The notes: generated by a model from the sequence alone, not told the origin. Shown: positions 1-50,936, numbered from the stretch's first letter. The stretch: DNA of 64,000 nt from an uncultured Candidatus Rokubacteria bacterium (GCA_963762145.1 CAVXJS010000021.1:160001-224000), one strand, 5' to 3'. Numbers and translations are program-made.

Positions 1-1979
<1,979 letters not shown>

Positions 1980-4962: not shown

Positions 4963-5787
4963 TCAGCGCTTCTGGTACTCCGGCCGCCAGCGCAGCAGCC
5001 GGGCCTCGACCTGCTTGATCCCGAGCGCCATGACGATCCCGATCACGCCCAGTACGAAGAGCGCCACCATCATGTCGGCCGCGTTCAGGGTACCGAGGGA
5101 CTGGATGATCAGGTAGCCGAGGCCGCCGCCCGATTCGCCCCCGATGAACTCCCCGACCACCACCCCGATGAGGGCGAAGGAGATGGACGGCGTCAGGGAC
5201 GCGAAGGTCCACGCGAGCGCGGACGGCACGATCACGCTCGTCATGATCTGCCGCTCCGAGGCGCCCAGGAAGCGCGCGGAGTGGATCAGGTCGGCGTCCA
5301 CGCTGCGGGCGCCCTGGAAGGTGTTGAAGAACACGATGAAGAACACGATGCTCCAGGCGAGCACGATCTTGGCGAGCAGGCCGAACCCGAAGATCATCGT
5401 GATGAGCGGCACCAGGGCGATGCGCGGCAGCGAGTTGAAGGCCACGATGTAGGGCTGGAAGACGCGCGCCAGCCCGTCGCTTCGCCCCAGGACCAGGCCG
5501 GCCACGAAGCCGGTGGAGATGCCGACCAGGAAGCCCCACACGGTGGACTGCACGGTGGAGAGGGCCATCTGCCAGATGGTGAGCCGCACCTTCGGCGACG
5601 TCAGGTAGAGCAGGCGCTCCACGATCGCAGACGGCCGGCTGATGAAGAACGGGTCGATCCAGTAGAGGCCGGGCGTCTTCGAGATCGCCTTGATCCCGGT
5701 CAGGTACTGCCAGGCGGCCAGCACCGCGACCAGGATCAGGAGCTGCCACGCGAGGACGCGGAGGCGGGTGCGGGTCATGGCAGACAT
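4963..5787 (-). CDS. NitT/TauT family ABC transporter permease
   Basis: Hydrophobic; LPRIAL.PL, EAA-like loop (LIHSARFLGAS), IGVVVGEFIG. Confidence 0.93.
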   Translation of the reverse strand: MSAMTRTRLRVLAWQLLILVAVLAAWQYLTGIKAISKTPGLYWIDPFFISRPSAIVERLLYLTSPKVRLTIWQMALSTVQSTVWGFLVGISTGFVAGLVLGRSDGLARVFQPYIVAFNSLPRIALVPLITMIFGFGLLAKIVLAWSIVFFIVFFNTFQGARSVDADLIHSARFLGASERQIMTSVIVPSALAWTFASLTPSISFALIGVVVGEFIGGESGGGLGYLIIQSLGTLNAADMMVALFVLGVIGIVMALGIKQVEARLLRWRPEYQKR

Positions 5788-5794
5788 CCCTTTT

Positions 5795-5880
5795 GCGGAC
5801 GACCGTTTACTTCTTCAAGGCTCTTCAGCTGCGGGGGCCCAGAAATGGCCCCCGCACTCCCCCAGTGGCGGACAACCGTT
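5795..5880. repeat. Intergenic cassette repeat, copy 1 (hairpin core with flanking 13-bp direct repeats)
   Basis: Hairpin TGCGGGGGCC-CAGAAAT-GGCCCCCGCA at 5830-5856; GCGGACGACCGTT (5795) and GCGGACAACCGTT (5868). Confidence 0.9.
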
Positions 5881-5893
5881 GTGGGTCGCGCCA

Positions 5894-6682
5894 TCATGGG
5901 GTCACCGCCCGGAATTCCTCGCCGAGGACGTGCCAGATCTCGCTGTACTCGCGGGAGTACTCGTCGCTCTCGCGGATGCGGATCACGTCGCGGGGGCGCG
6001 GGAGCTTCACCTCGTAGATCAGCTTGATGCGGCCGGGCCGGCGCGTCATCACCACGATGCGATCGGCCAGGGTGATCGCCTCGGAGAGATCGTGGGTCAC
6101 GAAGATCACCGTCTGCTGCTTCGCCTGCCAGATCTCGAGCAGCTCGGCGTGCAGGTTCAGCTTCGTGTGGGTGTCGAGCGCGCCGAAGGGCTCGTCCATC
6201 AACAGGATCTCGGGGTCCACCACCAGCGAGCGCATCAGGGCCACCCGCTGCCGCATGCCGCCCGAGAGCGTGGCGGGGAACGCGTCCTCGAAGCCCTGCA
6301 GCCCGGCCAGCGCGATCGCCTGGCGCACGCGGGCGTCCCGCTCCGCGGCGGGCACGTTGCGGTACTCGAGGCCGAGCGCGATGTTGCGCTCGACCGTCCG
6401 CCAGGGAAAGACGGTGTCCTTCTGGAAGACGTAGCCGACCTGCGACGGCGGCGCGCCGGTGACCGGCCGGCCGTCCACCACGATCTCCCCGCCGGACGGC
6501 GCCACGAGGCCGCCGATCATGTTCAGGATCGTGGACTTGCCGCAGCCGGACGGGCCCACGATCGCCACGAACTCGCGCTCGTGGACGTCGAAGGAGACCG
6601 GCGAAACGGCGGGGACCTCGCGAGGGCCCTGTCCGAAGGTCTTCGCGAGGTCCCGGATGGAAACGCGGACCCGCGGCGTCAC
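5894..6682 (-). CDS. NitT/TauT family ABC transporter ATP-binding protein
   Basis: GPSGCGKST, LSGGMRQR, LLMDEPFGALD, VTHD; GTG start inferred. Confidence 0.95.
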   Translation of the reverse strand: MTPRVRVSIRDLAKTFGQGPREVPAVSPVSFDVHEREFVAIVGPSGCGKSTILNMIGGLVAPSGGEIVVDGRPVTGAPPSQVGYVFQKDTVFPWRTVERNIALGLEYRNVPAAERDARVRQAIALAGLQGFEDAFPATLSGGMRQRVALMRSLVVDPEILLMDEPFGALDTHTKLNLHAELLEIWQAKQQTVIFVTHDLSEAITLADRIVVMTRRPGRIKLIYEVKLPRPRDVIRIRESDEYSREYSEIWHVLGEEFRAVTP

Positions 6683-6693
6683 TCCCGGCCGCT

Positions 6694-7788
6694 TTACTTG
6701 TACTTGGCCTGAGCCTTCTTGACGAAGCTCATGTCCACCGCCTGCTTGTACGGGATCGGCTTGTCCACCGCGGTGGGCACCCACACCTTCATGCCGCGCT
6801 CGTAGTCTCGCTCCTCGATCACGAAGTCCCAGTCGAAGATCGTCCGGTAGTAGCGGACGGACTCCAGCACCACCTCGCGCTTGAAGGTCTCCATGTACGG
6901 CTTCCACAGCAGGTCGGTGACCTCGTCGTCCTTCGCGCGGCGGATCCACTGCTGCGCGCGGTAGCAGGCGTTGACGTAGGCCTGCACGAGATCGGGCGAC
7001 TTCTCGACGGTTTCCTTCAGCACGTAGCCTACCGTGACCGGGATGGGCCCGCCGAAGACCTGGTTCCACGCCTTCTCGTCCTGGATGTCGTAGATCGGCT
7101 TGCCGAAGCCTTCCTCCACCGCCGCCTGCTGCCACTCCGGCACCGCCATGATCGCGTCGAACTTGCCCGCCTTGAGGCCGCCGAGCATCGTGGTCGAGGC
7201 ACCCCCGCCCACCCACTCCACGTGATCGTTCACCGGCTTGCCGTCCCCGCCCTTGACGTTCTGCAGGACATACACCCCGTACACATAGGTGCCGGAGCCG
7301 ATCGCGGTGGCCGCGACCACCGCCTTGCGGCCCACCAGCTTCTGGTCGGCGAGGGCCTCGACGGTCTTCACGCCCTTGTCCCACAGCTCCTTGCGCACCA
7401 CGATGTTGGCGTACGAGCAGCGCGTGTCGGTCGCGAAGACCATCAGCGCGTCCTTGCCCTTCTCGGTGATCTTGAGCGGGTGGTTGGAGTCGCCGAGCGC
7501 GAACAGCACCTGGCCCGCGGCGAGCGCCTGCACGACCTTGGCCCCGCCCCCGGGGACCACGAAGTCCGGCGTCTTGACCCCTTCCTCCTCGAAGAGCTTC
7601 TTCTGGGCGGCCACTAGGTGCTGGCCGTAGACGAAGGTCGAGACGCTGTGCGAGGCCGAGATGCCCTTCAGGCCCTGGCCCCACGCCGGCCCCGACCACG
7701 CCCCCCCGACGGCCAGCGCGCCCCCCACCGCCGTGGATTTCAAGAACTCTCGGCGCGTCCAGGGCGCCCCTTGCGGCTGCTCCGACAT
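6694..7788 (-). CDS. NitT/TauT family ABC substrate-binding protein, Tat-exported
   Basis: Twin-arginine signal TRREFLK; SsuA/THI5-like features; upstream of the ATPase and permease. Confidence 0.88.
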   Translation of the reverse strand: MSEQPQGAPWTRREFLKSTAVGGALAVGGAWSGPAWGQGLKGISASHSVSTFVYGQHLVAAQKKLFEEEGVKTPDFVVPGGGAKVVQALAAGQVLFALGDSNHPLKITEKGKDALMVFATDTRCSYANIVVRKELWDKGVKTVEALADQKLVGRKAVVAATAIGSGTYVYGVYVLQNVKGGDGKPVNDHVEWVGGGASTTMLGGLKAGKFDAIMAVPEWQQAAVEEGFGKPIYDIQDEKAWNQVFGGPIPVTVGYVLKETVEKSPDLVQAYVNACYRAQQWIRRAKDDEVTDLLWKPYMETFKREVVLESVRYYRTIFDWDFVIEERDYERGMKVWVPTAVDKPIPYKQAVDMSFVKKAQAKYK

Positions 7789-7879
7789 TGGTCCCCTCCT
7801 TGGGAAAACTGCGAGAAAACTGCCAGGCACTGTACATGCCGGCGGCCCGGGCTGTCAACGCCAGATTGGCCCAAAGACA

Positions 7880-7908
7880 TTGACACATAAGGTTTTTTGG
7901 GCTATCGT
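7880..7908 (+). promoter_or_regulatory. Sigma70-type promoter for the yicC operon (a divergent TTGACA-N18-TACAGT on the minus strand at ~7829-7858 could drive the ABC operon)
   Basis: TTGACA-N17-TATCGT in an AT-rich patch. Confidence 0.6.
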
Positions 7909-7967
7909 CCGGTGATGGCAGCGCGGGAGTTCCCCCTCACCTCCACCGTCCGACCTTCGAGCGAGCG

Positions 7968-8852
7968 ATGATCCGCAGCATGACCGGGTATGGGCGGGCG
8001 GAAGCGGCGGGGGCGCGCACCATCCTCTCCGTCGAGTGCAAGTCGGTGAACCACCGGCACCTCGATGTGTCCCTCAAGCTGCCCCGGGTCCTGGGTTCAT
8101 TCGAAGCTGACGCGCGCCGGCTGATCCAGGCCGCCGTGCAGCGCGGCCGCGTGGACGTGAGCGCGACGTTCACCGCGCCCGAAGGCAGCGTGCTGAATCC
8201 GCTCACCGTCAACCTGGCCCAGGCCAAAGAATACGCCGAAGCCGCGCGCACGCTCGCCGCGGCCCTCGATCTCGGAGACGGCCCATCGCTCGGCTGGGTG
8301 ATGGGCCAGTCGGGCGTGCTGTCACGCGAGGAGCAGGCACCGCTGTCGGCCGAGGAAGCGTGGCCGCTGCTCGAACGGGCCCTCAGCGGGGCGCTGACCG
8401 AACTGGTGGAGCGCCGCGAGACCGAGGGCCGGGCCCTCGGCCAGGAACTGCTCGGCCTCGGTGCGACGCTGGCCGCCCACGTGGACACGGTGGCCCAGCG
8501 CGCCCCGATGGCGGTCGAGCGACGGGCCGGCCGGCTGCGTGAGCGGATGCAGGCCATGCTGACCGGCGCGGACATCGACCAGTCGCGGCTCGCCACCGAG
8601 GTCGCGGTGTGGGCGGACAAGACCGACGTGAGCGAGGAGCTGGCGCGCCTGCGGGCCCATCTGACCCAGCTCGGCGCCCTGCTGACCGGTGACGGCCCGG
8701 TGGGCCGCACGCTCGATTTCCTCATCCAGGAGATCAACCGCGAGGTGAACACCATCGGCTCCAAGGCGGACGATCTGGAGATCTCGCAGGCGGTGATCGC
8801 GGCCAAGTCGACGCTCGAGAAGATGCGCGAGCAGGTGGCGAATCTTGAATAA
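7968..8852 (+). CDS. yicC: YicC/YloC endoribonuclease
   Basis: MIRSMTGYGRA, KSVNHRHLD, GRTLDFLIQEINREVNTIGSK, EKMREQVANLE. Confidence 0.96.
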   Translation: MIRSMTGYGRAEAAGARTILSVECKSVNHRHLDVSLKLPRVLGSFEADARRLIQAAVQRGRVDVSATFTAPEGSVLNPLTVNLAQAKEYAEAARTLAAALDLGDGPSLGWVMGQSGVLSREEQAPLSAEEAWPLLERALSGALTELVERRETEGRALGQELLGLGATLAAHVDTVAQRAPMAVERRAGRLRERMQAMLTGADIDQSRLATEVAVWADKTDVSEELARLRAHLTQLGALLTGDGPVGRTLDFLIQEINREVNTIGSKADDLEISQAVIAAKSTLEKMREQVANLE

Positions 8853-8870
8853 CACGACCTGGATTCGCGC

Positions 8871-9491
8871 GTGCAGCTGATCAAGCGCCGCGGCACGCTG
8901 GTGGTCGTGTCGGCCCCGTCGGGGGCGGGCAAGACCACGCTCTGCCACGAGGTGCGCTCGCTCGTCCCCGAGCTCTACTACTCCGTCTCCCACACCACGC
9001 GCGATCCGCGCCCCGGGGAGAAGGAGGGCACCGACTTCTTCTTCGTCTCCGAGGGGCAGTTCACCGCCATGCGCGCTCGCGACGAGTTCGCGGAATGGGC
9101 CCAGGTGCACGGCCACCACTACGGCACGCCCGCGAAGGCCCTCGAAGGCGCCTTGAGCCGGGGCCTCGACGTGCTGCTCGACATCGACACCCACGGGGCG
9201 CGGCAGCTCCGGCAGCGGTATCCGGAGGCGGTGTCGGTCTTCATCATGGCGCCCTCGATGGCCGAGCTCGAGGCCCGGCTGCGCGAGCGCAAGAGCGATT
9301 CCGCCGGCGACATCGCACGGCGGCTGAGCCGCGCCCGGGAAGAGATCGCGGCGTGGCGCCAGTACGATTACCTCATCATCAACCGTGACGTGAAGGACGC
9401 GGTGGACCAGCTCGCGACCATCATCCAGGCCGAGCGCTGCCGCACGAGCCGACTGACTCTCAGATTCCCCGACATGGAGGTACCCGCTTGA
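8871..9491 (+). CDS. gmk: Guanylate kinase
   Basis: SAPSGAGKTT, SVSHTTRDPRPGE, YGTP, LLDID. Confidence 0.97.
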   Translation: MQLIKRRGTLVVVSAPSGAGKTTLCHEVRSLVPELYYSVSHTTRDPRPGEKEGTDFFFVSEGQFTAMRARDEFAEWAQVHGHHYGTPAKALEGALSRGLDVLLDIDTHGARQLRQRYPEAVSVFIMAPSMAELEARLRERKSDSAGDIARRLSRAREEIAAWRQYDYLIINRDVKDAVDQLATIIQAERCRTSRLTLRFPDMEVPA

Positions 9492-9703
9492 TGGCGTTCC
9501 CGTCGCTTGAAAAGTCCCTGGACAACGTCTCCAACCGCTACATGCTCGTGGTGCTCGCGGCCAAGCGCGCGCGGCAGCTCAATCGCGGCGCGAAGTCCCA
9601 GGTCGAGAGCCGTCACAAGAAGCCCACCAGCAACGCCCTCGAAGAGATCGCCGAGTCCCGGGTCGGCTACCGGGTGAAAGAGGAAGACACTTCGAAAGTC
9701 TGA
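9491..9703 (+). CDS. rpoZ: RNA polymerase omega subunit
   Basis: NRYMLVVLAAKRARQL, KP...ALEEI; follows gmk. Confidence 0.95.
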   Translation: MAFPSLEKSLDNVSNRYMLVVLAAKRARQLNRGAKSQVESRHKKPTSNALEEIAESRVGYRVKEEDTSKV

Positions 9704-9746
9704 AACGAGCACAAAGCAAGGCCAAAGCAAGAGCCCAGAAGTCTGA

Positions 9747-9832
9747 AACGAGTGTCCGCCATCTGGGGGAGTGCGGGGGCCATTTCTGGGCCCCCGCATT
9801 AAATAGAGTCTAAAGACTTAGACGGTAGATCT
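9747..9832. repeat. Intergenic cassette repeat, copy 2 (inverted relative to copies 1 and 3)
   Basis: ACGAGTGTCCGCCATCTGGGGGAGTGCGGGGGCCATTTCTGGGCCCCCGCAT is the reverse complement of the copy 3 core with 1 mismatch. Confidence 0.9.
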
Positions 9833-9857
9833 CACATACGGTAAAGCGGACGCAACC

Positions 9858-11093
9858 ATGACCCTTCACAACAAAGAGCTGATCCTCGGCGTCACCGGCA
9901 GCATCGCCGCCTACAAGGCGGTCTTCCTGCTGCGCGAGCTGACGCGCGCCGGGGCGCAGGTCACGGTGGTCACCACCGGACACGCCGAGCGCTTCGTGGG
10001 GGCCCTCACCTTCCGCACGCTCTCCGGCCGGCCGGTGCTCGCCGACCTGTTCGATCCGCAGAGCGCGGAGGCGGTCGAGCACGTCGCCCTCGCCGAGCGG
10101 GCCCACGCCCTGATCGTGGCCCCCGCCACCGCCAACCTGCTGGCCAAGGCCGCCCACGGCATCGCGGACGATTTCCTCACCACCCTCCTGCTCGCGGTCC
10201 GATGCCCGGTGCTGATGGCGCCCGCGATGGACGGCGGCATGTGGGATCACGCCGCGGTGACCGCGAACGTGACGACGCTGCGCGGGCGCGGGGTCACGGT
10301 GCTCGAGCCCGACGCGGGCGCACTCGCCTCCGGACTCTCGGGCCGGGGCCGGCTGCCGGAAGCCGACGCCATCATGGAAGCGCTCGAGCGCCTCCTGGCC
10401 CCGCGGCGCGACCTGGCCGGCGAGCGGGTGCTGGTGACATCGGGGCCGACGCGCGAGCCCATCGATCCGGTGCGCTACATCTCGAATCGCTCGTCCGGGA
10501 AGATGGGCCAGGCGGTGGCGACCGCCGCGCTGCGCCGCGGCGCCGAGGTGATCCTGATCTCGGGGCCCACCACCCTGACCCCGCCCGCCGGCGCGGTGTA
10601 CGTGCCGGTGCAGACCGCGGAGGACATGCGCGAGGCCGCGCTGCAGCACCTCGAGCGCGCCACCATCGTCATCAAGGCGGCCGCGGTGGCCGACTACCGC
10701 GTCAAGCAGCCGAGCGCGACCAAGATCAAATCGCGCAAGGACGAAGGGCTCACGCTCGATCTCGCGCCCAATCCCGACATCCTCAAGGAGCTGGCCGCCC
10801 GCAAGGGCCGGGCGTTCTTGGTGGGCTTCGCGGCCGAGACCAACGACGTGCGGGCCAACGCGGCCGCGAAGCTGCGGGCCAAGGGTGTGGATCTGCTCGT
10901 GGCCAACGACGTCAGCGTGAAAGGCATCGGCTTCGACGCGGAGGACAATCAGGTGACCCTGCTCGACCGGTGGGGCGGCGTGAACGATCTGCCCAGGATG
11001 AACAAGCTAGAAGTCGCCGACGCGATTCTCGATCGCGTGCTCGGGCTGCGCGCCGCCGATCGCTCCCCCGCCTCCGACCGCGCCGCCCACTAG
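9858..11093 (+). CDS. coaBC: Phosphopantothenoylcysteine decarboxylase/ligase
   Basis: GVTGSIAAYK, APATAN, TSGPTREPIDPVRYISNRSSGKMG, AAAVADY, VGFAAET. Confidence 0.97.
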   Translation: MTLHNKELILGVTGSIAAYKAVFLLRELTRAGAQVTVVTTGHAERFVGALTFRTLSGRPVLADLFDPQSAEAVEHVALAERAHALIVAPATANLLAKAAHGIADDFLTTLLLAVRCPVLMAPAMDGGMWDHAAVTANVTTLRGRGVTVLEPDAGALASGLSGRGRLPEADAIMEALERLLAPRRDLAGERVLVTSGPTREPIDPVRYISNRSSGKMGQAVATAALRRGAEVILISGPTTLTPPAGAVYVPVQTAEDMREAALQHLERATIVIKAAAVADYRVKQPSATKIKSRKDEGLTLDLAPNPDILKELAARKGRAFLVGFAAETNDVRANAAAKLRAKGVDLLVANDVSVKGIGFDAEDNQVTLLDRWGGVNDLPRMNKLEVADAILDRVLGLRAADRSPASDRAAH

Positions 11094-11097
11094 CCCG

Positions 11098-11796
11098 ATG
11101 AGCGACCCGCGGGAGGCCGTGGCCCTGGCCCTGCGCGGTCTGGCGGACACGCTCCGGCACCACCGCGAGCTGGGGCTGCGCGACGTCGCGCTCGCTACCG
11201 TCCCGTTCCCCGATCCGGCCGACGGCCTCCGGGAGCAGGAGCGCGCACGACAGGGGTGTCAGCTATGCAAGCTCTGCAAGAGCCGCACGAACGTCGCGTT
11301 CGGCTCGGGCAATGCGCGGGCGCGGCTCATGGTGGTGGGCGAGGGGCCCGGCGAGGAAGAGGACAAGCAGGGGCTGCCCTTCGTCGGGCGCGCCGGGCAG
11401 CTCCTCACCAAGATGCTGGCCTCCGTGGGATTCGACCGCGAGCGCGACTGCTACATCGCCAACGTGGTGAAGTGCCGGCCCGAGCGCAACCGCAACCCGG
11501 AGCCCGACGAGGTCGCGGCCTGCAGCCCGTTCCTGATGGCCCAGATCGACACCATCGGCCCGCACGTGATCCTGGCGCTCGGCAACTTCGCCGCGCAGAC
11601 CCTGCTCGGGACCAAGGAGGGCATCACGCGGCTGCGCGGCAAGACGTATCAGTACCGGGCGAGCGTGCTCGTGCCCACCTTCCACCCCGCCTTCCTGCTC
11701 CGCAATCCCGGTCCGGAGTTCCGGCGCATGGCCTGGGACGATCTCAAGCTCGCGCGCCGGGAGTACGACGCGCGCTCCGGCGACGGGTCGCGATAG
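11098..11796 (+). CDS. Uracil-DNA glycosylase, family 4 (Fe-S)
   Basis: CQLCKLC, GEGPG.EED.QG.PFVGRAG, NVVKCRP, TFHPAFLLR. Confidence 0.95.
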   Translation: MSDPREAVALALRGLADTLRHHRELGLRDVALATVPFPDPADGLREQERARQGCQLCKLCKSRTNVAFGSGNARARLMVVGEGPGEEEDKQGLPFVGRAGQLLTKMLASVGFDRERDCYIANVVKCRPERNRNPEPDEVAACSPFLMAQIDTIGPHVILALGNFAAQTLLGTKEGITRLRGKTYQYRASVLVPTFHPAFLLRNPGPEFRRMAWDDLKLARREYDARSGDGSR

Positions 11797-11806
11797 AGCG
11801 TGTCCA

Positions 11807-11891
11807 GCGGATACTCGTCTAGTTCTTCAGGCTCTCCATATGCGGGGGCCCAGAAATGGCCCCCGCACTCCCCCAGTTGGCGGACACTCGT
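11807..11891. repeat. Intergenic cassette repeat, copy 3
   Basis: Same hairpin at 11841-11867; direct repeats GCGGATACTCGT (11807) and GCGGACACTCGT (11880). Confidence 0.9.
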
Positions 11892-11897
11892 AGTCGA

Positions 11898-13664
11898 GTG
11901 ATCGCGGACATAGTCTTTGATATTCCGATCGACCACGCGTTCTCGTATGTGGTTCCGGCGGGTCTGGTGGTCGCCCGGGGGCAGCGGGTCAGCGCGCCGC
12001 TCCAGGGCCGGGCGCGGGTCGGCGTGGTGGTCGGGCTCCGCGATGGCGACGCGGCCGGGCTGAAGCCGCTGCAGCGCGCGGTGGAGCCGGTGCCCGTGCT
12101 CTCCGAGGCCGGCCTCGAGCTGGGCCGCTGGGCCGCCGGCGAGAGCCTGTCGTCGTGGGGGTCGACCCTGCTCTCGCTCCTGCCGCCGCCCCCGCGCGGG
12201 GGCGCCGCCGAGACGGTGTCGGCGCCTGCAGCCCCCGCGCCCGGCCCCACGCGCGCGGCGGAGCTCTGGACGGACGAGCGGCGCGAGGACCGGCTCGTCG
12301 AGTGCCTGGAGCGCGAGCCCGGCGCGGCGCTCGTCATCACGCCCGACCGCGAGGCGGCCGCGCGCTGGGCGCAGCGGCTCGATGCGCCCCGGCTCGACAG
12401 CGGCGTCTCCGGGGCGGAGCGCCGCCGGGCCTGGTTCGCGGCCGCCCGCGGGCGCAGCCGAGTCGTGGTCGGCACGCGGTCGGCGTTGCTGGCGCCTTTG
12501 CCCCCGCCCGCGGTGCTGGCGCTGATCGACGAGCACGATCCGGCCCACAAGCCGCCCGGCGCCCCGCGGCTGCATTCGCGCGATCTGCTCCGGCGCCGGG
12601 CCGAGCTCGACGGCAGCCGCCTGCTCCTGCTCTCCGCCACCCCGTCGGCCGAGAGCTGGTGGCACGCGCGCCAGGGCCGGATCGTACGGCCGGACGCGCC
12701 CCCGGCTTCCTGGCCGGAGGTCATCACCGCGGACACGCGGGGCATCCTCCGGAACCACCCGCTCACCCTGCCGCTGACACGCGCCATCGAGGACATGTCG
12801 CGGCGGGGCCGCCGGGCCGTCCTCATCGTCAGCCGCCGGACGTCCGCGCTCGCCTGCCACGAGTGCGGCACCGTGCTTCGCTGCCCGGATTGCGGCGTGG
12901 CCCTGTCCCTCGCCCGCGACCGGAGCGCGCTCCGCTGCCCGCTGTGCGCGCGCGCCGATCCACCCCCCGACCACTGCCCGGCGTGCGGCGGTCATCGGCT
13001 CTCCCCGTCCGGCTGGGATCCCGAGCGCGTCCAGGCCTCGGTCGCTCGACGCTTTCCGCGGCTGACCGTCTCGCGGCAGGACCTCGAGGCCCAGGTGCTC
13101 GTCGGCACGCCCGCCCTGCTCCGCGCGCTACCCCGGCGGTCGGTCGGCTGCGTCGGCTTCGTCGCCCTCGACGGGCTGCTGCGGGTGCCGGACTTCCGCG
13201 CGGGCGAGCGGACCTGGCAGCTCCTGTGGGCCGCCGCAGAATCGGTGACGCCGGGCGGACGCCTCATCATCCAGACCCAGCATCCAGAGCACTACGCGAT
13301 CCGGGCCGTGCAGGCGCAGGATCGCGCGAGCTTCTACGAGGAGGAGCTCAAGTTCCGGGCCGAGCTCGGCTACCCGCCGTATCGCCGGCTCGCCGAGGTC
13401 TCGGCCCGCGGCGGGGAGGACGGCCAGGTGCGGGCCCTCGTCGCCGAGTGCGCGACGGCCCTCCGCGGCATCGGAGGCCTCACGATCTATCCTCCCGTCT
13501 CGGTGACCCCGCCGCGCGGGCGCAAGAGCCGCTGGCGCTTCGTGATCAAGGGCCCCGCCGACCTGCCGCGCCTCCTGGCGCCGGCGCTCGAGCCCTTCCT
13601 CGGGCGGCGACGGCGCGCGAGCGGTATGGTAGAAATAGAGATGGATCCGCAGTCCAACGGCTAG
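11898..13664 (+). CDS. priA: Primosomal protein N', shortened and lacking Walker A
   Basis: 3'-DNA-binding N-terminus (FSY.VP), VVGTRSA, LSATPS, four CxxC, PDFRAGERT.QL, IQT..PEH, R..LGYPP; precedes def-fmt; GTG start just after the repeat. Confidence 0.9.
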   Translation: MIADIVFDIPIDHAFSYVVPAGLVVARGQRVSAPLQGRARVGVVVGLRDGDAAGLKPLQRAVEPVPVLSEAGLELGRWAAGESLSSWGSTLLSLLPPPPRGGAAETVSAPAAPAPGPTRAAELWTDERREDRLVECLEREPGAALVITPDREAAARWAQRLDAPRLDSGVSGAERRRAWFAAARGRSRVVVGTRSALLAPLPPPAVLALIDEHDPAHKPPGAPRLHSRDLLRRRAELDGSRLLLLSATPSAESWWHARQGRIVRPDAPPASWPEVITADTRGILRNHPLTLPLTRAIEDMSRRGRRAVLIVSRRTSALACHECGTVLRCPDCGVALSLARDRSALRCPLCARADPPPDHCPACGGHRLSPSGWDPERVQASVARRFPRLTVSRQDLEAQVLVGTPALLRALPRRSVGCVGFVALDGLLRVPDFRAGERTWQLLWAAAESVTPGGRLIIQTQHPEHYAIRAVQAQDRASFYEEELKFRAELGYPPYRRLAEVSARGGEDGQVRALVAECATALRGIGGLTIYPPVSVTPPRGRKSRWRFVIKGPADLPRLLAPALEPFLGRRRRASGMVEIEMDPQSNG

Positions 13665-13692
13665 CGACACGGCCCAGAGAGGGGATGGGACA

Positions 13693-14214
13693 GTGGCATT
13701 GCTCACGGTGAGGCTCTACGGCGACCCGGTCCTGCGTCAGGTGGCCGCCCCGGTGCGCGACATTACCGCCGAGATCAAGCGGATCATCGCGGACATGACC
13801 GAGACCATGTGGCACCAGGTCGGCATCGGGCTGGCCGCGCCCCAGGTCGGGCTCCCGTACCGCATTCTCGTGATGGACGACGGCAAGGGTGGCGCGCAGG
13901 CCCTGATCAATCCGGAGATCGAGAGCCGCAGCGGGACCATTCGCGAGGAAGAAGGCTGCCTCTCGCTTCCGGGAATCTTCGGCGTGGTCGAGCGCAGCAA
14001 GACGATCACGGTGAAGGCCACGGACGCGGACGGCAAGCCGGTCTCGTTCGAGGCCACCGGGCTCAAGGCCCGGATCGTCCAGCACGAGCTGGATCACCTC
14101 GACGGCGTGCTCTTCATCGATCGGCTGCCTCCGGTGACCCGGGACCGCATCAAGAAGAAGATCCAGAAGGAAGGCTTCCCCAAGGAGACGGGGAACCACG
14201 CCTTCGCGCTCTAG
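13693..14214 (+). CDS. def: Peptide deformylase
   Basis: [24 protein letters not shown]. Confidence 0.98.
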
Positions 14215-14224
14215 CGAATCCCGG

Positions 14225-15158
14225 CTGCGCGTTCTGTTCTACGGCACGCCGGCCTTCGCCCTGCCCACGCTCGAGGCTCTGCTGACGCACCACCAGGTGG
14301 TGGCGGTCATCACCCAGCCCGACAAGCCGGCCGGCCGCGGGCGCACCGTGACGGCCTCCCCGGTGAAGCAGCGCGCGCTCGACGGCCTCGGTGCCGGTGC
14401 TACAGCCGCCGCGGCTTCGCGACGCGGGCTGGCCGGAGCGCCTGGCCGAGTACCGGGCCGACGTGGCGGTGGTCGCCGCCTTCGGCCAGATCCTGCCCAA
14501 GGCGGTCCTGGACGTGCCGGTGCAGGGCTCCATCAATGTCCACGGCTCGGTGCTGCCCCGCTACCGCGGCGCGGCGCCGATCGCCTGGGCCATCATGCGC
14601 GGCGAGACGGAGACCGGCATCACCACATTCCAGATGGACCCGGGCATGGACACCGGCGACGTGCTCCTGACCGAGGCGACGCCGATCGGCCCCGAGGAGA
14701 CGGCCGGTGAGCTCTCCACCCGGATGGCGGAGATCGGCGCACGGCTCCTGCTGGGAACGCTCGAGGGCGTCGCCACGCTGCCTCGCATTCCGCAGGATCA
14801 CACGAAGGCCACGCTGGCGCCCCGACTCAAGAAGGAAGACGGCTGGCTGCGGCCCGCCGAGCCCGCGCGCGATCTCGTCAACCGCGTGCGCGGCTGTAAC
14901 CCGTGGCCGGGCGCCGCGCTCATGACGCCGGCCGGCCGGCTTCTGGTCTGGCGCGCGACCGCGGTTGCCGCGTCCGGCGCCGCCGCGGCCCCCGGCACCC
15001 TCGTCGCCACTCCCTCCACCCTCGCCATCGCCACCGGCGACGGCCTGCTCGTCCCGCTCGACGTCCAGCCGGAAAATCGCAAGGCGATGCGGTGGCCCGA
15101 CTTCCTCCGCGGCGCCCGCCTGTCGGCGGGCGCCCGCGTGACCGAGCCCGCCTCGTGA
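14225..15158 (+). CDS. fmt: Methionyl-tRNA formyltransferase (frameshift near 14385; start codon uncertain, CTG)
   Basis: [47 protein letters not shown]. Confidence 0.95.
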
Positions 15159-16549
15159 GCCCGATTCTCAAGGCGGGCCCGGTCTCCCAGGCCCGATACG
15201 AGGCGCTGCACATCCTGGTCCGGGTCGAGCGGGACCGCGCCTTCGCCGATCTCGCACTCGAGGCCGCGCTCGATCGCGCGCGCCTCGACGCTCGGGACGC
15301 GGGGCTCTGCACCGAGATCGTCTACGGCACCCTGCGCTGGCGTCGCCACCTGGACTGGCGCCTCACCCCGCATCTCAACCGCCCGCTCGCCAAGCTCGAT
15401 CCCTGGGTGCGCGCGGTACTGCGCCTCACCGCGTACCAGCTCCTCTTTCTCGATCGCGTCCCGCGCTGGGCCGCGGTCGACGAGGCGGTGAGCATCGCCC
15501 GGCTCAAGTCTCGCAACCCGGGCCCCGCGGAATTCGTCAACGCGGTGCTGCGGGCCTTCACCGCGGGCGCCCGCCCCGCCCCGACTGCCCGCCGCTCCGG
15601 TCGAGGCGGCCGCGATCCGCTGGTCGTTTCCGGACTGGATGGCTGCGCGCTGGATCGCCCGCTACGGGCTCCCGGAGGCGGAACGCCTCATGCAAGGGCT
15701 CGACGAGCGCCCACCCGTGACCATCCGCGCGAACACCCTGCGCATCTCGCGCGAAGACCTCGCGACCCGGCTCCGGGACGAGGAGCTGGCCGATACGGAT
15801 CCCACGCCGCTCGCGCCGGAGGGCCTCACCGTGCGCCGGGGCGGCATCGGCCGGTGGGCCGCCTTCGCGGCGGGCTGGTGCGCGATCCAGGACGAGGCGT
15901 CCATGCTGACGGCGCGCCTGCTCGATCCACAGCCGGGTGAGCTGGTCGCGGACACCTGCGCCGCGCCCGGGACCAAGACCACCCACCTGGCCCAGCTCAT
16001 GGCCAATCGTGGGCGCATCATCGCCATGGATCCGCACGCGGGGCGGCTCGGGCTCCTGACCCAGGCGGTGTCCCGGCTCGGGGTCTCCATCGTCGAGGCG
16101 CACGCGGGCGGCGTGGCCTCGGTGTCGGGGCGCTGGAAGAACCGCTGCGACCGGGTGCTGGTCGATGCGCCCTGCTCGAACCTGGGCGTGCTGCGCCGCA
16201 ATCCCGACGTGAAGTGGAAGCGGGAGGAGACGGAGCTCGGCCGGCTCGCCGAGAAGCAGCGGGGCATTCTCACCGCCGCGGCGGAGCTCGCCAAGCCGGG
16301 CGGACGCCTGGTCTACGCCACCTGCTCGCTCGAGCCCGAGGAGAACGATGAGGTCGTACGGGCCTTCCTCGACGAGCATCCCGACTGGCGTGTGGATCCA
16401 CCCGCCGCGCTTCCCGGTGCCGCCCGGCGCCGGACGGCGTGATTCGCTGCCTGCCTCACGTGCACGGAACCGACGGCTTCACCGCGGTGCGGCTGATGCC
16501 GGCTGCCGAGAACCTGACGCCCTTTGCGGCTCCCGCCGCTTTGGAGTAA
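15155..16549 (+). CDS. rsmB: 16S rRNA m5C967 methyltransferase (frameshifts near 15570 and 16410)
   Basis: NusB-like N-terminus (YGTLRW, FVNAVLR), IQDEAS, DTCAAPG.KT, VDAPCS.LG, YATCS..PEEN, HGTDGF. Confidence 0.93.
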
Positions 16550-16561
16550 GGTCGTCGCATC

Positions 16562-17257
16562 ATGAAGATCGCACCCAGCATCCTGTCCGCCGACTTCGCC
16601 GCGCTGGGCGAGGCCATCGCGCGGGTGGAGGCGGCGGGAGCGGACCTGCTCCACGTGGACGTCATGGACGGCCACTTCGTGCCCAATCTCACCATCGGGC
16701 CGCCCGGTGATCGAGTCCGATCCGGAAGCGGACCCGCCTCCCCCTCGACGTGCACCTGATGATCGAGGAGCCCGAGCGCTGGGTGGAGACGTACGTGAAG
16801 GCCGGCGCGGACTAGGTCACGGTGCACGCGGAGGCCTGCCCGCACCTCGAGCGGGCGCTGCCCGTGATCCGGGAGGCCGGGGCCCGGGCCGGGGTGGCGC
16901 TCAACCCCTCCACCCCGCCCGGGGTCCTCCAGTACGTGCTGGACGACCTCGACCTGGTCCTGGTCATGTCGGTCAACCCCGGGCTTCGGCGGCCAGTCGT
17001 TCATCCCGACCGCCTACGAAAGATCCGCCGAAGTCAGAGTGATGCTCGCCGGCCGGCCGGTCGCTGATCTCGGTGGACGGCGGGGTCAAGACCGACAATG
17101 CCGGCCGCGCTGGCCCAGGCCGGGGCCGACGTGCTGGTGGCCGGGTCGGCCGTGTTCGGCGCCCCCGATCCGGGCGCCGCGCTGGTCGACGCTGCAGGAG
17201 TGCGTCGGAAGTACCGAGAAGGGCTTGACTTTTTCCAGCGCTCGCAGTATCCTTTAG
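16562..17257 (+). CDS. rpe: Ribulose-phosphate 3-epimerase (several frameshifts; end approximate)
   Basis: [47 protein letters not shown] spread across frames. Confidence 0.92.
17225..17253 (+). promoter_or_regulatory. Sigma70-type promoter upstream of ffh
   Basis: TTGACT-N17-TATCCT, 40 bp before the ffh ATG. Confidence 0.55.
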
Positions 17258-17293
17258 CGTTTCCACGAACTGTCCCCTGGTGGAAGAACGCGC

Positions 17294-18643
<1,350 letters not shown>

Positions 18644-18692
18644 GCCCCCGGACCTACGCAGATCACGACAACCGAACAGAGAGAGGTGACCA

Positions 18693-18954
18693 GTGGCGGT
18701 GCACATCAGGCTGAGACGGACGGGAACGACGCGGAAGCCGGCATACCGCGTGGTGGTGGCGGACTCGCGCGCGGCGCGGGACGGCAAGTTCATCGAGGTG
18801 CTCGGGCACTACAACCCGCTCACGAACCCGCCGACGATCAAGATCGAGGTCGAGAAGGCGCAGGCGTGGATCAGCCAAGGGAGCCCAGCCCTCTAACACC
18901 GTGAAGCACCTGCTGGCGCGGGCGCGGAGCGCCGCGGGAGCCGTCAAGGCCTAG
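18693..18954 (+). CDS. rpsP: 30S ribosomal protein S16 (frameshift near 18880)
   Basis: AVHIRLRR.G...PAYRVVVADSR..RDGKFIE.LG.YNP. Confidence 0.96.
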
Positions 18955-18962
18955 GGGATCCG

Positions 18963-19484
18963 GTGACGGGAGCGCCGCTCGTGACGATCGGCGAGGTGCT
19001 GCGGCCCTACGGGCTCCGTGGCGAGGTCAAGGTGCGTCCGCTCACCGACCGGCCCCGCGAGCGGTTCAAGGCTCTCATGTCGTGCACGCTGTGGGAGCCC
19101 CAGGTGGACCGGCGCGAGCCGTGCCGCATCGCGTCCTGCCGGTTCGAAGGAGACACCGTCTACCTCCGGATGGACGGGGTGGATTCGCCGGAGGCGGCCC
19201 GTCGGTTTTGCGGGCGGCTGCTCGCGGTGACCCGGGAGGAGGCCCTGCCTCCCGTGGACGGCAGCTTCTACCCGTGGCAGCTCGAGGGAGCGGTGGTCGA
19301 GACGCGCGACGGGCGCGCGGTGGGCCGGTTCGTGGGGGTGGAGTCGGGCGCGCAGGAGCTGTGGCTGGTGGACGACGGCGCCCAGCGGAGGCTCATCCCT
19401 GCGGTGCCGGAGATCGTGGTGGAAGTCAGCGTGGCGGATCGTCGGATCGTGATCGATCCGCCGGAAGGGCTGCTGGACCTGTGA
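18963..19484 (+). CDS. rimM: Ribosome maturation factor
   Basis: GLRGEVKV, FY..QLEG, LIPAV, DPPEGLL; lies between rpsP and trmD. Confidence 0.93.
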   Translation: MTGAPLVTIGEVLRPYGLRGEVKVRPLTDRPRERFKALMSCTLWEPQVDRREPCRIASCRFEGDTVYLRMDGVDSPEAARRFCGRLLAVTREEALPPVDGSFYPWQLEGAVVETRDGRAVGRFVGVESGAQELWLVDDGAQRRLIPAVPEIVVEVSVADRRIVIDPPEGLLDL

Positions 19485-20238
19485 GGATCGACATCGTCAC
19501 CCTGTTCCCGGGGATGCTCGAGGCGCCGCTCGCCGAGTCGATCCTGGGGCGCGCCCGCGCGCGCGGCCTCGTGGACATCCGCGTGCACGACCTCCGGGAG
19601 CACGCCAGCGGGCGGCACCGGGTGACCGACGAGCCGCCCTTCGGCGGCGGCGGCGGCATGATCCTCAAGCCGGAGCCGCTCGCCGCGGCTATCCAAGCCC
19701 TGCGGGCGGCTGGGTCGGCCGCCCCCGCGCGTGATCCTGCTGGGCCCGGCCGGTCGCCGCTTCAGCCAGGTGGTGGCGCGGGAGCTGGCGCGCCGGCCCC
19801 ACCTGGTGCTCGTCTGCGGCCGCTACGAGGGAGTGGACGAGCGGGTCAGCGAGCAGCTCGTGGACGAGGAGCTGTCCATCGGCGACTATGTGCTGACCGG
19901 GGGCGAGCCGGCCGCGCTGGTGGTGTCGGACGCGGTCACGCGCCTGCTGCCCGGCGTGCTGGGCGACGAGGACGCGCCCGCGCGCGATTCCTTCGCGCGG
20001 CGGGCTCCTCGAGCACCCGCAGTACACGCGACCCGAGGTGTTTCGCGGCGCGGCCGTGCCCGAGGTGCTGCGCTCGGGCGATCACGGCCGCATCGCCCGC
20101 TGGCGCGCCCTGATGTCGCTGTGGCGTACGTGGCAGCGCCGGCCGGATCTCCTGGAGACCGCCGATCTCACCCCGGAGGAGCAGAAGTGGACCGACGCGT
20201 TCCGGCAGGGCCGGACGCCGACGGATCTCCTGGACTAA
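19481..20238 (+). CDS. trmD: tRNA m1G37 methyltransferase (frameshifts near 19720 and 20000)
   Basis: [51 protein letters not shown]. Confidence 0.96.
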
Positions 20239-20262
20239 TCATCGAGCAAGGAGCGTCATATC

Positions 20263-20634
20263 ATGGAAGCGATCCGAATCGTGGAAGCGGGTGATCTCAA
20301 GAAGGACCGGGGCGGCTTCCGGCCCGGCGACACCGTCAAGGTGATGGTGAAGGTGGTCGAGGGCGAGAAGGAGCGCCTGCAGGCGTTCGAGGGGGTGTGC
20401 ATCCGCCGCCGCGGGGGCGGCACCGGCGCCTCGTTCACGGTGCGGCGCATCTCCTACGGGGTCGGCGTGGAGCGCACGTTCCCGGTGCACTCGCCGCGGA
20501 TCGACAAGATCCAGGTGATGAAGCGGGCGACGGTGCGCCGGTCCAAGCTCTACTACCTCCGCGAGCTGGTCGGCAAGGCGGCGCGGCTCAAGGAGAAGCG
20601 ATTCGCCCAAGTGCCCACCTCCGGCGAGAGCTAA
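20263..20634 (+). CDS. rplS: 50S ribosomal protein L19
   Basis: [34 protein letters not shown]. Confidence 0.98.
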
Positions 20635-20649
20635 AATCGGGCCCTGACG

Positions 20650-21297
20650 GTGGGCGCGCCCTACCACTTCGAGAGCGCCGCGTGGCGGCGGGGCATCACC
20701 TGCCTGGCGGGCGTGGACGAGGCGGGACGGGGCCCGCTGGCGGGACCGGTGGTCGCGGCGGCGGTGGTGATCGCGCCGGGCGCACGGATCGCGGGAGTGG
20801 ACGATTCGAAGCGGCTCCTGCCGGAGGAGCGGCAGCGGCTCTTCGAGGTGATTCGCGAGCGCGCGGTGAGGGTGGGGATCGGGATCGTGGATCACCTGAC
20901 GATCGACCGGATCAACATCCTGCAGGCCACGCGGCTGGCGATGGGACAGGCGCTCGGTGCGCTGGGGGTCGAGCCGGAGCTGGTGTTGACGGATTTCGTG
21001 ACGGTACCAGGGCTGCGTTGCCCGCAGCGGAACCTGGTGGAAGGCGATCGGCGGTCGGCCTCGGTCGCGGCGGCCTCCATCATCGCCAAGGTGACGAGGG
21101 ACCGGATCATGGAAGAAGCGGATCGCGAGTTCCCGATCTACGGATTCGGGCGACACAAGGGGTACGCGACGCCCGAGCACCGGAGCGCGCTCGAGCAGCA
21201 CGGGCCGTGCGCGCTGCACCGGCGCACCTTCGCGGGAATCTGGAACCAGATGACGCTGTTTTCAAGCCGCGAGCTTCAATGGATCGAGGCTGACTAA
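20650..21297 (+). CDS. rnhB: Ribonuclease HII
   Basis: [33 protein letters not shown]. Confidence 0.97.
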
Positions 21298-21303
21298 GGA
21301 GTC

Positions 21304-21690
21304 GTGAACGTGCCGACCGACACCAGGAAGATCACCGGCGTCAGAGGGGAGGAAGAAGCGGCCCGCTTCCTCGCGCGCAGTGGGCTCGCGATTCTGGACC
21401 GAAACGTGAGGACCCGCGCGGGGGAGATCGATCTCGTGGCGAAGGAGGGCAAGACCCTCGTGTTCGTCGAGGTCAAGACCCGCCGCGCCGCCGAGGGCGA
21501 TCCGCCGCAGGCCGCGGTGAACACGCGCAAGCAGAACCGGCTGGGCAAGCTGGCGCACGGCTATCTCAAGCTCAAACGGCTCCGGCAGGTCTCCTGCCGC
21601 TTCGACGTCGTCTCGGTGATCTTCAACGATGAAGGCGCGGTCAAGGCGATCAGACACATCCCCAACGCGTTCTCGGTCTCCGCCTGGTAG
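21304..21690 (+). CDS. yraN: YraN family endonuclease (UPF0102)
   Basis: G..GE..A, GEIDLV, FVEVKTR, RFDVV. Confidence 0.95.
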   Translation: MNVPTDTRKITGVRGEEEAARFLARSGLAILDRNVRTRAGEIDLVAKEGKTLVFVEVKTRRAAEGDPPQAAVNTRKQNRLGKLAHGYLKLKRLRQVSCRFDVVSVIFNDEGAVKAIRHIPNAFSVSAW

Positions 21691-21691
21691 C

Positions 21692-21787
21692 AGTAAACGG
21701 TTGCGCGGAATGCAGTGGCACGGTGAGGCGCAGCCGAAGGCGAGCCGAACGGATACAAAGAGCTTAAGGAAGTAAACGAAGATCCGG
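21692..21787. repeat. Intergenic cassette repeat, copy 4 (shared ends, different core)
   Basis: AGTAAACG direct repeat at 21692 and 21771; arm AAGAGCTTAAGGAAGTAAACG resembles the copy 1 arm AAGAGCCTTGAAGAAGTAAACG; left end AACGGTTG as in copy 1. Confidence 0.65.
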
Positions 21788-21839: not shown

Positions 21840-22490
21840 ATGCACCGCGACGAGCTCTTCAGCAAGACCCTCCCCCTCGACCCCACGCACACCGCGCTGC
21901 TCGTCGTCGACATGCAGCGCGCGTTCGTGGAGGAGGGCCAGGCGATGGAGGTCACCCCGGCTCGCGACGTGATCCCGCGGATCCAGGAGCTGATCGCGGT
22001 GTTCCGCGAGAAGCACCTCCCGGTGGTCTTCACCGAGTTCACGTACTCACCCGCGGCGCCCCTCCTGGTGGGCGAACTCCATCCCGAGCACCGCCCGGCC
22101 ACCCCCGGGGCCCCCACCGGCTTCGGCCTCCCCTCGTCCTCGTGCCTGGAGGGCGCGGACAATGCGCGCGTGATCCCCGAGCTCGCTCCGCGCGCGGACG
22201 AGCTGGTGATCCGCAAGCACTACTACGACGGGTTCAACGGCACCGTGCTGGACGGCGCGCTCCGGGCGCGCGGCGTCACCACGCTCGTGATCACCGGCAC
22301 GATGACCGACATCTGCGTGCTTGGCACCGTGATCGGCGGCTTCAACCGCGAGTACCGGCTGATCGTGGTCGAGGACGGCGTGGCCACCCTGTGGCCCGAG
22401 ATCCAGCGCGCCACGCTCGATATCATCCGCCGGGCCTACGCGCGCGTGCTCGCGGCCAAGGAAGTGGCCGACGAGCTGGCGCGAGGTTGA
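21840..22490 (+). CDS. Isochorismatase/cysteine hydrolase family amidohydrolase
   Basis: Asp-Lys-Cys triad: LLVVDMQ, IRKHYYDGF, GTMTDICV. Confidence 0.92.
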   Translation: MHRDELFSKTLPLDPTHTALLVVDMQRAFVEEGQAMEVTPARDVIPRIQELIAVFREKHLPVVFTEFTYSPAAPLLVGELHPEHRPATPGAPTGFGLPSSSCLEGADNARVIPELAPRADELVIRKHYYDGFNGTVLDGALRARGVTTLVITGTMTDICVLGTVIGGFNREYRLIVVEDGVATLWPEIQRATLDIIRRAYARVLAAKEVADELARG

Positions 22491-50697: not shown

Positions 50698-50743
50698 CGA
50701 TCACGCGGGCGAGGCAACCCCTCCCCGCGTGATCGTCGTTTTT
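50698..50743 (+). terminator. Intrinsic terminator after pilA copy 1
   Basis: CGATCACGCGGG...CCCGCGTGATCG stem followed by TCGTTTTT. Confidence 0.75.
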
Positions 50744-50854
50744 GATGCGTCCTCGTGTCGGTGCACCAACGCTGTCCGATGCTCCGGTGATGGCCTCGCC
50801 CTCTCCTGGCTGCTCAATCAGCCGCCCGGAAGGCGCCTTCGTACGATCCCCGCG

Positions 50855-50870
50855 TGGCACACGATGTGCA
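50855..50870 (+). promoter_or_regulatory. Sigma54 promoter of pilA copy 2
   Basis: TGGCAC-ACGAT-GTGCA. Confidence 0.75.
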
Positions 50871-50936
50871 AATGGTTGCGAGTGCGCCACGGGCGCGGGA
50901 TCAACATCTCAACCGGAAACAACGGAGGCAGAGTCC

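Follow-up and report, generated by a model that had tools for sequence, protein, structure and literature searches.

Tagged hairpins between the genes of uncultured Rokubacteria point to a family of small mosaic repeats

What are the four similar short sequences that lie in gaps between genes of an uncultured Candidatus Rokubacteria bacterium, and how did they come to share parts with one another? They stand in a 64,000-nucleotide stretch of its DNA (GCA_963762145.1, CAVXJS010000021.1:160001-224000), the whole of which is called the window here. An earlier note on this DNA had described them as intergenic cassettes with a shared terminal arm, flanking direct repeats and different cores. All four elements, numbered copies 1 to 4, exist where that note placed them; as a whole its observation is partly confirmed and its interpretation partly supported. 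With a probability of roughly 70%, we read the elements as members of a lineage-specific family of small mosaic intergenic repeats, occurring in genomes mostly titled Rokubacteria or Methylomirabilota, in which the direct repeats, termed A-boxes, mark the next head-to-tail unit at a spacing of 73-74 nt. It is a mosaic repeat family like repetitive extragenic palindromes (REPs) and bacterial interspersed mosaic elements (BIMEs), with an unusual tag and a direct arrangement. The family appears undescribed: a literature search, whose broader queries covered the best-ranked matches only, gave no paper combining Rokubacteria or Methylomirabilota with such repeats.

The part that ties the elements together is a hairpin of 25 nt, GCGGGGGCC-ATTTCTG-GGCCCCCGC. 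It is the same in copies 1 to 3, as had been reported, with three matches in the window vs none expected from 100 shuffles, and the repeats detected pairwise among these copies measure 36 nt (100% identical), 52 nt (98%) and 49 nt (94%). A search with a profile of the unit returned the three known copies and no further diverged hairpin copy in the 64-kb window (next match, E = 3.3). The exact hairpin was used to scan a species-representative genome collection, and at least 108 stretches were retrieved, labelled L001 to L108. The matches listed and the window together hold 118 instances, which form the sample for all per-copy counts given here, in a total of 383,234 nt of sequence.

The nine bases immediately 5' of the hairpin, TGGGGGAGT, lay outside the search pattern, and the consensus base stands at each of their positions in 103-117 of about 117 copies. 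The tenth pair of the stem, which flanks and closes the 25-mer, is T-A in 96 of the 118 instances, A-T in nine, C-G in two and T-G in one, with ten non-pairs. The double, compensatory changes at this closing pair demonstrate selection for pairing of the stem. The constant unit comes to 35 nt and consists of an unpaired TGGGGGAG tag and, after it, a perfect G+C stem of 10 bp with a loop of 7 nt. As single-stranded DNA the tagged hairpin folds at -14.3 kcal/mol on either strand, and none of 200 shuffles folds as well. Folds of the whole 96-nt elements have z-scores of -1.1, -4.3 and -1.7 for copies 1 to 3 and -0.7 for copy 4, and only the central hairpin is consistent across copies.

Around the constant unit stand modules that are combined in different ways. 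The A-box is a moderately conserved 12-mer, ACGGTTGTCCGC, located 14-25 nt to the left of the unit. At no more than two mismatches and within 60 nt it occurs left of the hairpin in 60 of the 118 copies and right of it in 21, and 19 of these 21 directly follow an arm. By itself the 12-mer is no rarer than chance in the window (nine matches with up to two mismatches vs 9.0 expected), so its meaning rests on position and not on rarity. Beside elements, two to four A-boxes often stand in a row, as in L021, L073, L074 and L015. On the right, an AT-rich arm of consensus AGAGCCTGAAGAAGTAAACGG follows the unit in 46 of the 118 copies (the script counted 47, one of them a false match in L010). A second kind of tail, T2 (AGAGGGGCGGATCCG...), is found in 19-20 copies and a third, T3 (AGAGAAGCTTCCGGTGG), in 8-9, leaving 43-44 with another or no recognisable tail. 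T2 is a second hairpin of 7-8 bp (GGGGCGGA...TCCGCCCC) with an A-box-like 3' arm (L086 292-372; L075 1940-2036). The shared terminal arm described earlier is real. Its consensus in the earlier note matches copies 2 to 4 with none expected, a circular result, and a profile built from the 46 other arms finds the arm independently.

Copy 4 has such ends without the hairpin. Its core had been called unrelated to that of copies 1 to 3; it does lack the hairpin and does differ, but it is not a one-off, since the core itself is a repeat, present in L078, twice in L052 and in L019. We call this second interspersed repeat core-2. It has five matches in 383 kb, those in L052 (two copies) and L019 being the shorter ones. 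In front of the L078 copy stands an A-box-like AAACGGTGGATCGG and behind it a T3-like tail, a tail found after the hairpin core elsewhere too. The arm of copy 4 is weak when taken alone (7.4 bits, E = 4.6 in 383 kb). Two motifs at its ends are nonetheless specific to the family. GTA[AG]ACGGTTG has six matches in 383 kb, five of which abut canonical elements while the sixth is copy 4, and AGTAAACG has 12 matches in 383 kb, all within elements and two of them in copy 4, where they start at 21692 and 21771, the 79 nt apart that had been claimed. Copy 4 is tied to the family through its end modules and core-2. Different cores are therefore found between the same kinds of ends, as proposed, with A-box and arm flanking both the hairpin core and core-2. 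The arm is nearly confined to the hairpin, an outcome that the earlier note had named as telling against it: of 54 arm matches, 46 abut the canonical hairpin and two a variant hairpin, and copy 4 is the sole credible exception.

Copy 4 has no significant fold (z -0.68). We considered its core as a decayed unit of the GGCACGGT-tagged hairpin kind seen in L036, L038, L045 and L072 and rejected this; the link is not significant because the shared 9-mer, GGCACGGTG, has 23 matches in 383 kb, mostly in coding DNA. The true relative of this core is core-2. Core-2 also forms short tandem arrays, with 63-nt units in L052 (about 40-125, reverse strand) and a duplicated 18-nt piece in L078 (3857-3921).

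Are the flanking direct repeats the trace of an integration event? The earlier note supposed a site-specific mechanism; in this model a recombinase integrates mini-cassettes with variable cargo and, in doing so, duplicates an attachment core of 12-13 bp in the manner of attL and attR. Copies 1 and 3 invite this explanation, with near-identical 12-mers at both ends that differ between the two loci, ACGGTTGTCCGC and ACGGTCGTCCGC at the one and ACGAGTGTCCGC and ACGAGTATCCGC at the other, each pair 73 nt apart as claimed. The orthologue of copy 3 in L042 has the same unusual variant in both of its boxes, ACGGATGTATGC and ACGGATGTACGC, and the presence of two different cores between the same kinds of ends would fit exchangeable cargo. 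Copy 2 is without a good right-hand repeat. However, the repeats at all loci and in all genomes belong to one motif with a single consensus, which also forms runs beside elements; they are two A-boxes, not target duplications. Nor are the boxes of one copy more alike than chance would have them. The left and right boxes of the arm-bearing copies (n = 46) differ by 4.59 mismatches vs 4.71 +/- 0.13 for shuffled partners (p = 0.20), and in the subset with two good boxes (n = 23) the values are 3.13 vs 3.38 (p = 0.09). An empty orthologous site should hold a single copy of the repeat, but the three empty sites described below have no A-box beyond chance: their best matches carry 4-5 mismatches of 12 and are equalled by 941-1925 of 2000 random windows. 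There are, in addition, no recombinases among 165 flanking proteins, and the 73-nt spacing is the length of a tandem unit. We consider the recombinase model very improbable.

The tandem arrays indicate what the boxes mark instead. In L092 a head-to-tail array has a period of 73 nt and 3.1 copies at 95% matches, and L106 and L043 hold two units each. Because the 73-nt spacing of the boxes equals the array period, a single unit boxed at both ends amounts to one unit and the beginning of its successor. Hairpin pairs at most 300 nt apart comprise at least nine direct ones, spaced by 72-87 nt, and one inverted, and most copies are single. These pair counts are lower bounds, as the script missed hairpins with one mismatch, which were seen in L092 and L039.

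A partial form of duplication was observed as well. In L018, L020, L034, L063, L077 and L107 a half-unit made of A-box, tag and 5' stem arm is tandemly duplicated before a complete hairpin, just 5' of it at about 2001 or 301 in those loci. Because several loci share one loop junction (..GGCCATT|CGAG..), the half-unit variant must have spread as well.

Comparison of orthologous sites points to a repeat that changes in form and number. Many copies are nevertheless of some age, for we recognised 29 orthologous site groups with flanks 72-96% identical (median 84%; the grouping merged window copies 2 and 3), and tail class or unit number differs within at least five of the 14 groups inspected. The hairpin copies of the window have orthologues in L026 (copy 1), L081 (copy 2) and L042 (copy 3). 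Copy 1 bears an arm and an A-box in the window, whereas its counterpart in L026, with flanks 90% identical, carries a T2-like tail and another left box. At another site L106 has two units and L089, L030 and L102 have one; at yet another L092 has 3.1 units and L039 and L034 have fewer. An all-against-all comparison of loci gave 136 cases in which a hairpin site mapped onto a second locus, and in 128 of these the second locus also has the hairpin, a share that is inflated because every locus was retrieved for its hairpin. The eight remaining cases come down to five sites, A to E.

At three of them a filled allele in one genome faces an empty one in a relative, the flanks being about 82-88% identical. 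Site A is occupied in L004, with 113 nt where the empty allele of L047 has none. Site B is occupied in L047 (164 nt) and L101 (114 nt) but empty in L004 (17 nt), and at site C two units in L036 (201 nt) stand against an empty allele in L065 (27 nt). Sites A and B are reciprocal, since L004 and L047 each have the unit that the other lacks. The view of the elements as non-autonomous and able to come and go is borne out by these sites. Both A-boxes belong to the inserted block, which at site A takes in some 24 nt of other sequence besides. The edges at site A read (C)GTCAC and (A)ATCAC when filled and a single AGTCAC when empty, a possible 5-nt duplication in one case only, and those of sites B and C are fuzzy. 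Two further candidates were dropped: site E proved to be filled by a hairpin with a variant loop (ATGTCC) in L007, and at site D (L065 vs L036) the alignment is too poor to call.

Elements that are small (about 85-115 nt), intergenic, non-coding and polymorphic in presence or absence bring to mind a MITE (miniature inverted-repeat transposable element), the deletion derivative of an insertion sequence (IS) with terminal inverted repeats and a target duplication of fixed length, of which the edges at site A could be the one case seen. However, the two ends of our elements are direct and not inverted copies of the A-box, no IS or transposase lies nearby, the boundaries vary by site and the tails vary too. 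We give a MITE origin very little credence.

The exact hairpin was found in at least 108 stretches from at least 32 assemblies, counted by accession prefix. Among the matches listed, 24 of 32 assemblies are titled Rokubacteria, Rokuibacteriota, Methylomirabilota or Methylomirabilia. The other eight carry the titles Acidoferrum, Nitrosotalea, Deferrimicrobiaceae, Verrucomicrobiia, Dormiibacterota, Limnocylindria, Eisenbacteria and 'uncultured bacterium'. At least one of these labels is at odds with the DNA: over more than 3 kb, L004 ('Nitrosotalea') shares 85-88% identity with L047 ('Methylomirabilia'). The window shows about 90% identity to L026 and L042, over 4.0 and 2.4 kb, and these two loci come from a single assembly titled Methylomirabilota. 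Copy 1 had no match in plasmid or phage collections at E<=0.01.

To relate the elements to their neighbours, gene orientation was assigned by local frame scoring of the flanks. Among 80 confidently scored copies (of 84 with enough flank), 31 run along the gene direction and 36 opposite to it, so that 67 of the 80 lie between co-oriented genes, while nine are in convergent and four in divergent gaps. In the window, where the Pfam context was taken from 18 open reading frames (ORFs), all four elements sit between co-oriented genes as the earlier note had it, copy 3 alone among the first three being inverted relative to the genes. Flanking genes were searched against Pfam for 165 of 167 representative proteins within 2 kb of elements, those left out being the coaBC and udg orthologues of L042. 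The named proteins are all housekeeping ones: nuo, mur/fts, urease, rpsB-tsf-pyrH-frr, mutS/mutL, aminoacyl-tRNA synthetases, ABC transporters and others. A match to a described Rfam family, which would have spoken against novelty, was not found: there is none at gathering scores in the whole window and none at E<=1 in 5600-12100, copy 4 being covered by the gathering search only. Intrinsic terminators and sigma-70 promoters were considered and set aside, as a simple scan calls neither on the elements in 5600-12100.

Such a neighbourhood raises the possibility of a fixed functional host signal, inherited vertically and sometimes deleted, for example an mRNA 3'-end stabiliser or processing site, a terminator or attenuator lacking a T-tract, or a site for a nucleoid protein. 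The core is letter-perfect while flanks are 72-96% identical, and its tag lay outside the search pattern; many copies occupy orthologous sites in housekeeping operons (nuo, mur/fts, urease, rpsB-tsf, mutS/mutL), few lie between divergent genes (4/80), and the closing base pair changes in a compensatory manner. All of this would suit a signal. However, the reciprocal sites A and B in one genome pair then require gains or two independent precise losses, and tandem arrays, duplicated half-units and tails swapped at one site are the behaviour of a repeat. Both orientations are also equally used (31 vs 36), unlike a one-direction RNA signal, and there is no T-tail. A fixed signal is in our estimate unlikely, and a repeat family is the explanation that we carry forward.

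How does this family compare with repeats that are already known? It differs from classical REPs and from MITEs, as had been proposed, by the lack of a GTAG/CGTC tag, the direct arrangement and the lack of terminal inverted repeats. Passages of Di Nocera 2013 (PMC3733652) describe REPs as G+C-rich palindromes of 20-40 nt with a conserved unpaired motif on one side and numerous extragenic copies, which lie mainly in co-oriented or convergent gaps and seldom in divergent ones and are plausibly transcribed. Our 35-nt unit shares the stem-loop, the one-sided unpaired tag, the extragenic position and the kind of gap (67 co-oriented and nine convergent vs four divergent, n = 80). Unlike REPs, its copies are mostly single or in direct tandem and not in inverted pairs, and the same core is common to at least 32 species-level assemblies. 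A further REP criterion is more than 100 copies per genome; here at least 118 exact copies are spread over at least 32 assemblies and the window, a figure that is no whole-genome count.

The likeness to BIMEs is closer in some respects. In the parts of Ton-Hoang 2012 (PMC3333891) that deal with them, the BIMEs of E. coli (BIME-2, atypical) combine a palindromic unit with several linker motifs in varying combinations, and tandem number varies by locus; a passage of Nunvar 2010 (PMC2817692) likewise gives REP/BIME tandem number as varying by locus. Correspondingly, the hairpin core is found in combination with A-box, arm, T2 and T3, core-2 occurs with an arm (window) or a T3-like tail (L078), and genomes differ in how many tandem units they have at one locus. 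In BIMEs, however, a REP alternates with an inverted REP, whereas units of this family run head to tail (at least nine direct pairs vs one inverted, period 73-74 nt). REPINs, the REP doublets associated with tyrosine transposases (RAYTs), are portrayed in excerpts from the literature as non-autonomous hairpin repeats that persist long in a lineage and are mostly inherited vertically, and in non-autonomy and persistence the present hairpins are like them. They are unlike REPINs in that neither the inverted doublet nor the single-copy RAYT, flanked by repeats, that serves it was found here; the search for a RAYT or other transposase covered the 165 proteins within 2 kb of elements.

Mycobacterial interspersed repetitive units (MIRUs) are direct tandem intergenic repeats of roughly 50-100 bp, located in operons of a high-G+C genome, with a copy number that varies between strains. 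They follow the orientation of the operon, contain small overlapping reading frames and are not known to be built on hairpins. The family resembles them in being direct, intergenic and variable in number, and differs in its neutral orientation, its strong hairpin and a frame of the loop ATG that is at chance.

Several observations weigh against reading the elements as a REP-like mobile family, or restrict how far that reading can be taken. All loci were chosen by an exact hairpin match, and the invariance of the 25-mer and the presence of elements at 'orthologous' sites are to that extent partly by construction. Copies were counted within contigs, the densest counts being at least six in one of 536 kb and three in the 64-kb window. 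The two boxes of one copy can change in concert, as seen from ACGAGTGTCCGC/ACGAGTATCCGC in window copy 3 vs ACGGATGTATGC/ACGGATGTACGC in L042, which may reflect conversion between the boxes or replacement by a unit from a homogenised array. The conserved unpaired motif on the 5' side is TGGGGGAG(T), there is no GTAG/CGTC at the foot of the stem on either strand, and the stem of the canonical unit is perfect. By contrast, the sections of Ton-Hoang 2012 (PMC3333891) on TnpA-REP state that binding in E. coli requires a stem mismatch and that the Y1 transposase needs a 5' GTAG together with the stem. A mobilising enzyme is something that we purely infer, and both the lack of a flanking transposase (no transposases or recombinases among the 165 representative proteins within 2 kb, by Pfam) and the neutral orientation count against it. 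Because orientation is neutral (31 vs 36), there is no hint of the strand bias expected for single-strand insertion of the IS200/IS605 type, and a strand-specific role of the RNA is disfavoured for the same reason. The hairpins are also not called as terminators by the simple scan because they have no T-tail.

With these reservations, a scheme can be sketched for how the repeat family might be maintained. Because the conserved tag stands on one side of the hairpin only, recognition of a folded single strand by a protein is suggested. A trans-acting protein would read the tagged hairpin on one strand and keep it letter-perfect across species; candidates are a REP-type HUH/Y1 enzyme or a host factor that binds DNA or RNA. 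The identical 35-nt cores would offer homology for ectopic recombination or conversion and for slippage, by which tails could be swapped and copy number changed. Transcribed inside operons, the hairpin could act as a barrier to 3'-to-5' RNA decay in either orientation, and this may be its role in the cell.

A bolder version can be put forward tentatively, and we regard it as doubtful. The TGGGGGAG-tagged hairpin could represent a third REP super-family beside GTAG and CGTC, confined to the Rokubacteria lineage and kept letter-perfect over at least 32 species by a dedicated enzyme that copies units head to tail, with the A-box and arm ends serving as processing sites that can carry different cores. 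If true, head-to-tail copying by such an enzyme would explain both the arrays and the single units that bear the start of the next.

The positions of the four elements and of their parts are collected in Table 1.

Table 1. Positions of the repeat elements and their modules in the window.
Feature	Position	Strand	Remarks
Copy 1, full unit (A-box, tagged hairpin core, arm, second A-box)	5795..5880	-	
Copy 1, left A-box ACGGTTGTCCGC	5868..5879	-	0 mismatches to consensus
Copy 1, invariant 35-nt core	5830..5864	-	TGGGGGAGT tag, 10-bp stem, 7-nt loop
Copy 1, arm AGAGCCTTGAAGAAGTAAACGG	5803..5824	-	22 nt, one extra T
Copy 1, right A-box ACGGTCGTCCGC	5795..5806	-	73 nt from left A-box
Copy 2	9747..9832	+	A-box 9748-9759, core 9764-9798, arm 9805-9825; right A-box poor
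Copy 3	11807..11891	-	A-box ACGAGTGTCCGC 11880-11891, core 11841-11875, arm 11815-11835, right A-box ACGAGTATCCGC 11807-11818
Copy 4, hairpin-less relative	21692..21787	+	Junction module AGTAAACGGTTG and A-box variant 21692-21708, core-2, arm 21759-21778
Copy 4, weak A-box ACGAAGATCCGG	21776-21787	+	
Core-2, second interspersed repeat	21712..21758	+	91.5% identical over 47 nt to L078 3875-3921, E 9e-12

Copy 1 occupies the gap from the stop of an ABC ATPase gene (5894) to the start of a permease gene (5787 or 5778), both on the minus strand, and has their orientation. The 664-amino-acid ORF at 5894-7888 is probably not a single gene: its ABC_tran domain is confined to the last third, and another frame (6694-7830) encodes an NMT1-like solute-binding protein. 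The operon order is therefore binding protein, ATPase, repeat, permease. Copy 2 occupies the gap that separates rpoZ (9488-9703) from coaBC (9858-11093) and is oriented as these genes are. Beside it, a 14-nt direct repeat, AAGTCTGAAACGAG, is present at 9696-9709 and 9739-9752, 43 nt apart. Its first copy holds the rpoZ stop codon, the second extends into the left A-box of copy 2, and the segment between the two is absent at the orthologous locus L081.

Copy 3 sits in the gap from udg (11098-11796) to priA, whose probable start is GTG 11898, and runs against these genes. Both A-boxes of the udg-priA copy (window 11807-11891; L042 about 1965-2060; genomes about 90% identical) read ACGAGT.TCCGC in the window vs ACGGATGTA.GC in L042. 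In the inverted orientation the loop of the hairpin reads ATGGCCCCC, which is in frame with priA in the window and in L042. From the loop ATG of copy 3 the frame (11856-11898) is open into priA, so that the start of priA in the ORF listing falls within the repeat. In the extended ORF the PriA 3'BD domain starts at residue 18, and the conserved N-terminus lies at GTG 11898 in the window and at a TTG in L042. We considered the loop ATG as a donor of start codons and rejected it: among 35 inverted copies the gene that comes after falls into frame 0 in 13 cases, frame 1 in 13 and frame 2 in 9, and because of this split the match to priA is chance for the family as a whole.

Copy 4 stands between a UPF0102/yraN gene (21304-21690) and a gene of the isochorismatase family (21840-22490). 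Elsewhere in the window, a 300-nt direct repeat, 96% identical, occurs at 50263-50562 and 50937-51236, 674 nt apart, within two adjacent pilin-like genes (50263-50667 and 50742-51341) that both have N_methyl and T2SSG domains. Its appearance suggests that a gene was recently duplicated in tandem or converted.

What is known of small hairpin repeats comes mostly from cultured Proteobacteria. The same mosaic behaviour is now seen in an uncultured lineage, where it differs in the tag, in the direct arrangement and in a core that is invariant across many species. For those who work with such genomes, the 35-nt unit is a marker of contigs from this lineage and may flag contigs that are mis-binned or mislabelled, given that eight of the 32 assemblies bear the titles of other phyla, an archaeal one among them. 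It also calls for caution on the part of gene callers, as the loop ATG falsely extends priA. For the biology of the family, the tagged hairpin provides a defined sequence with which to seek the protein that would read it.

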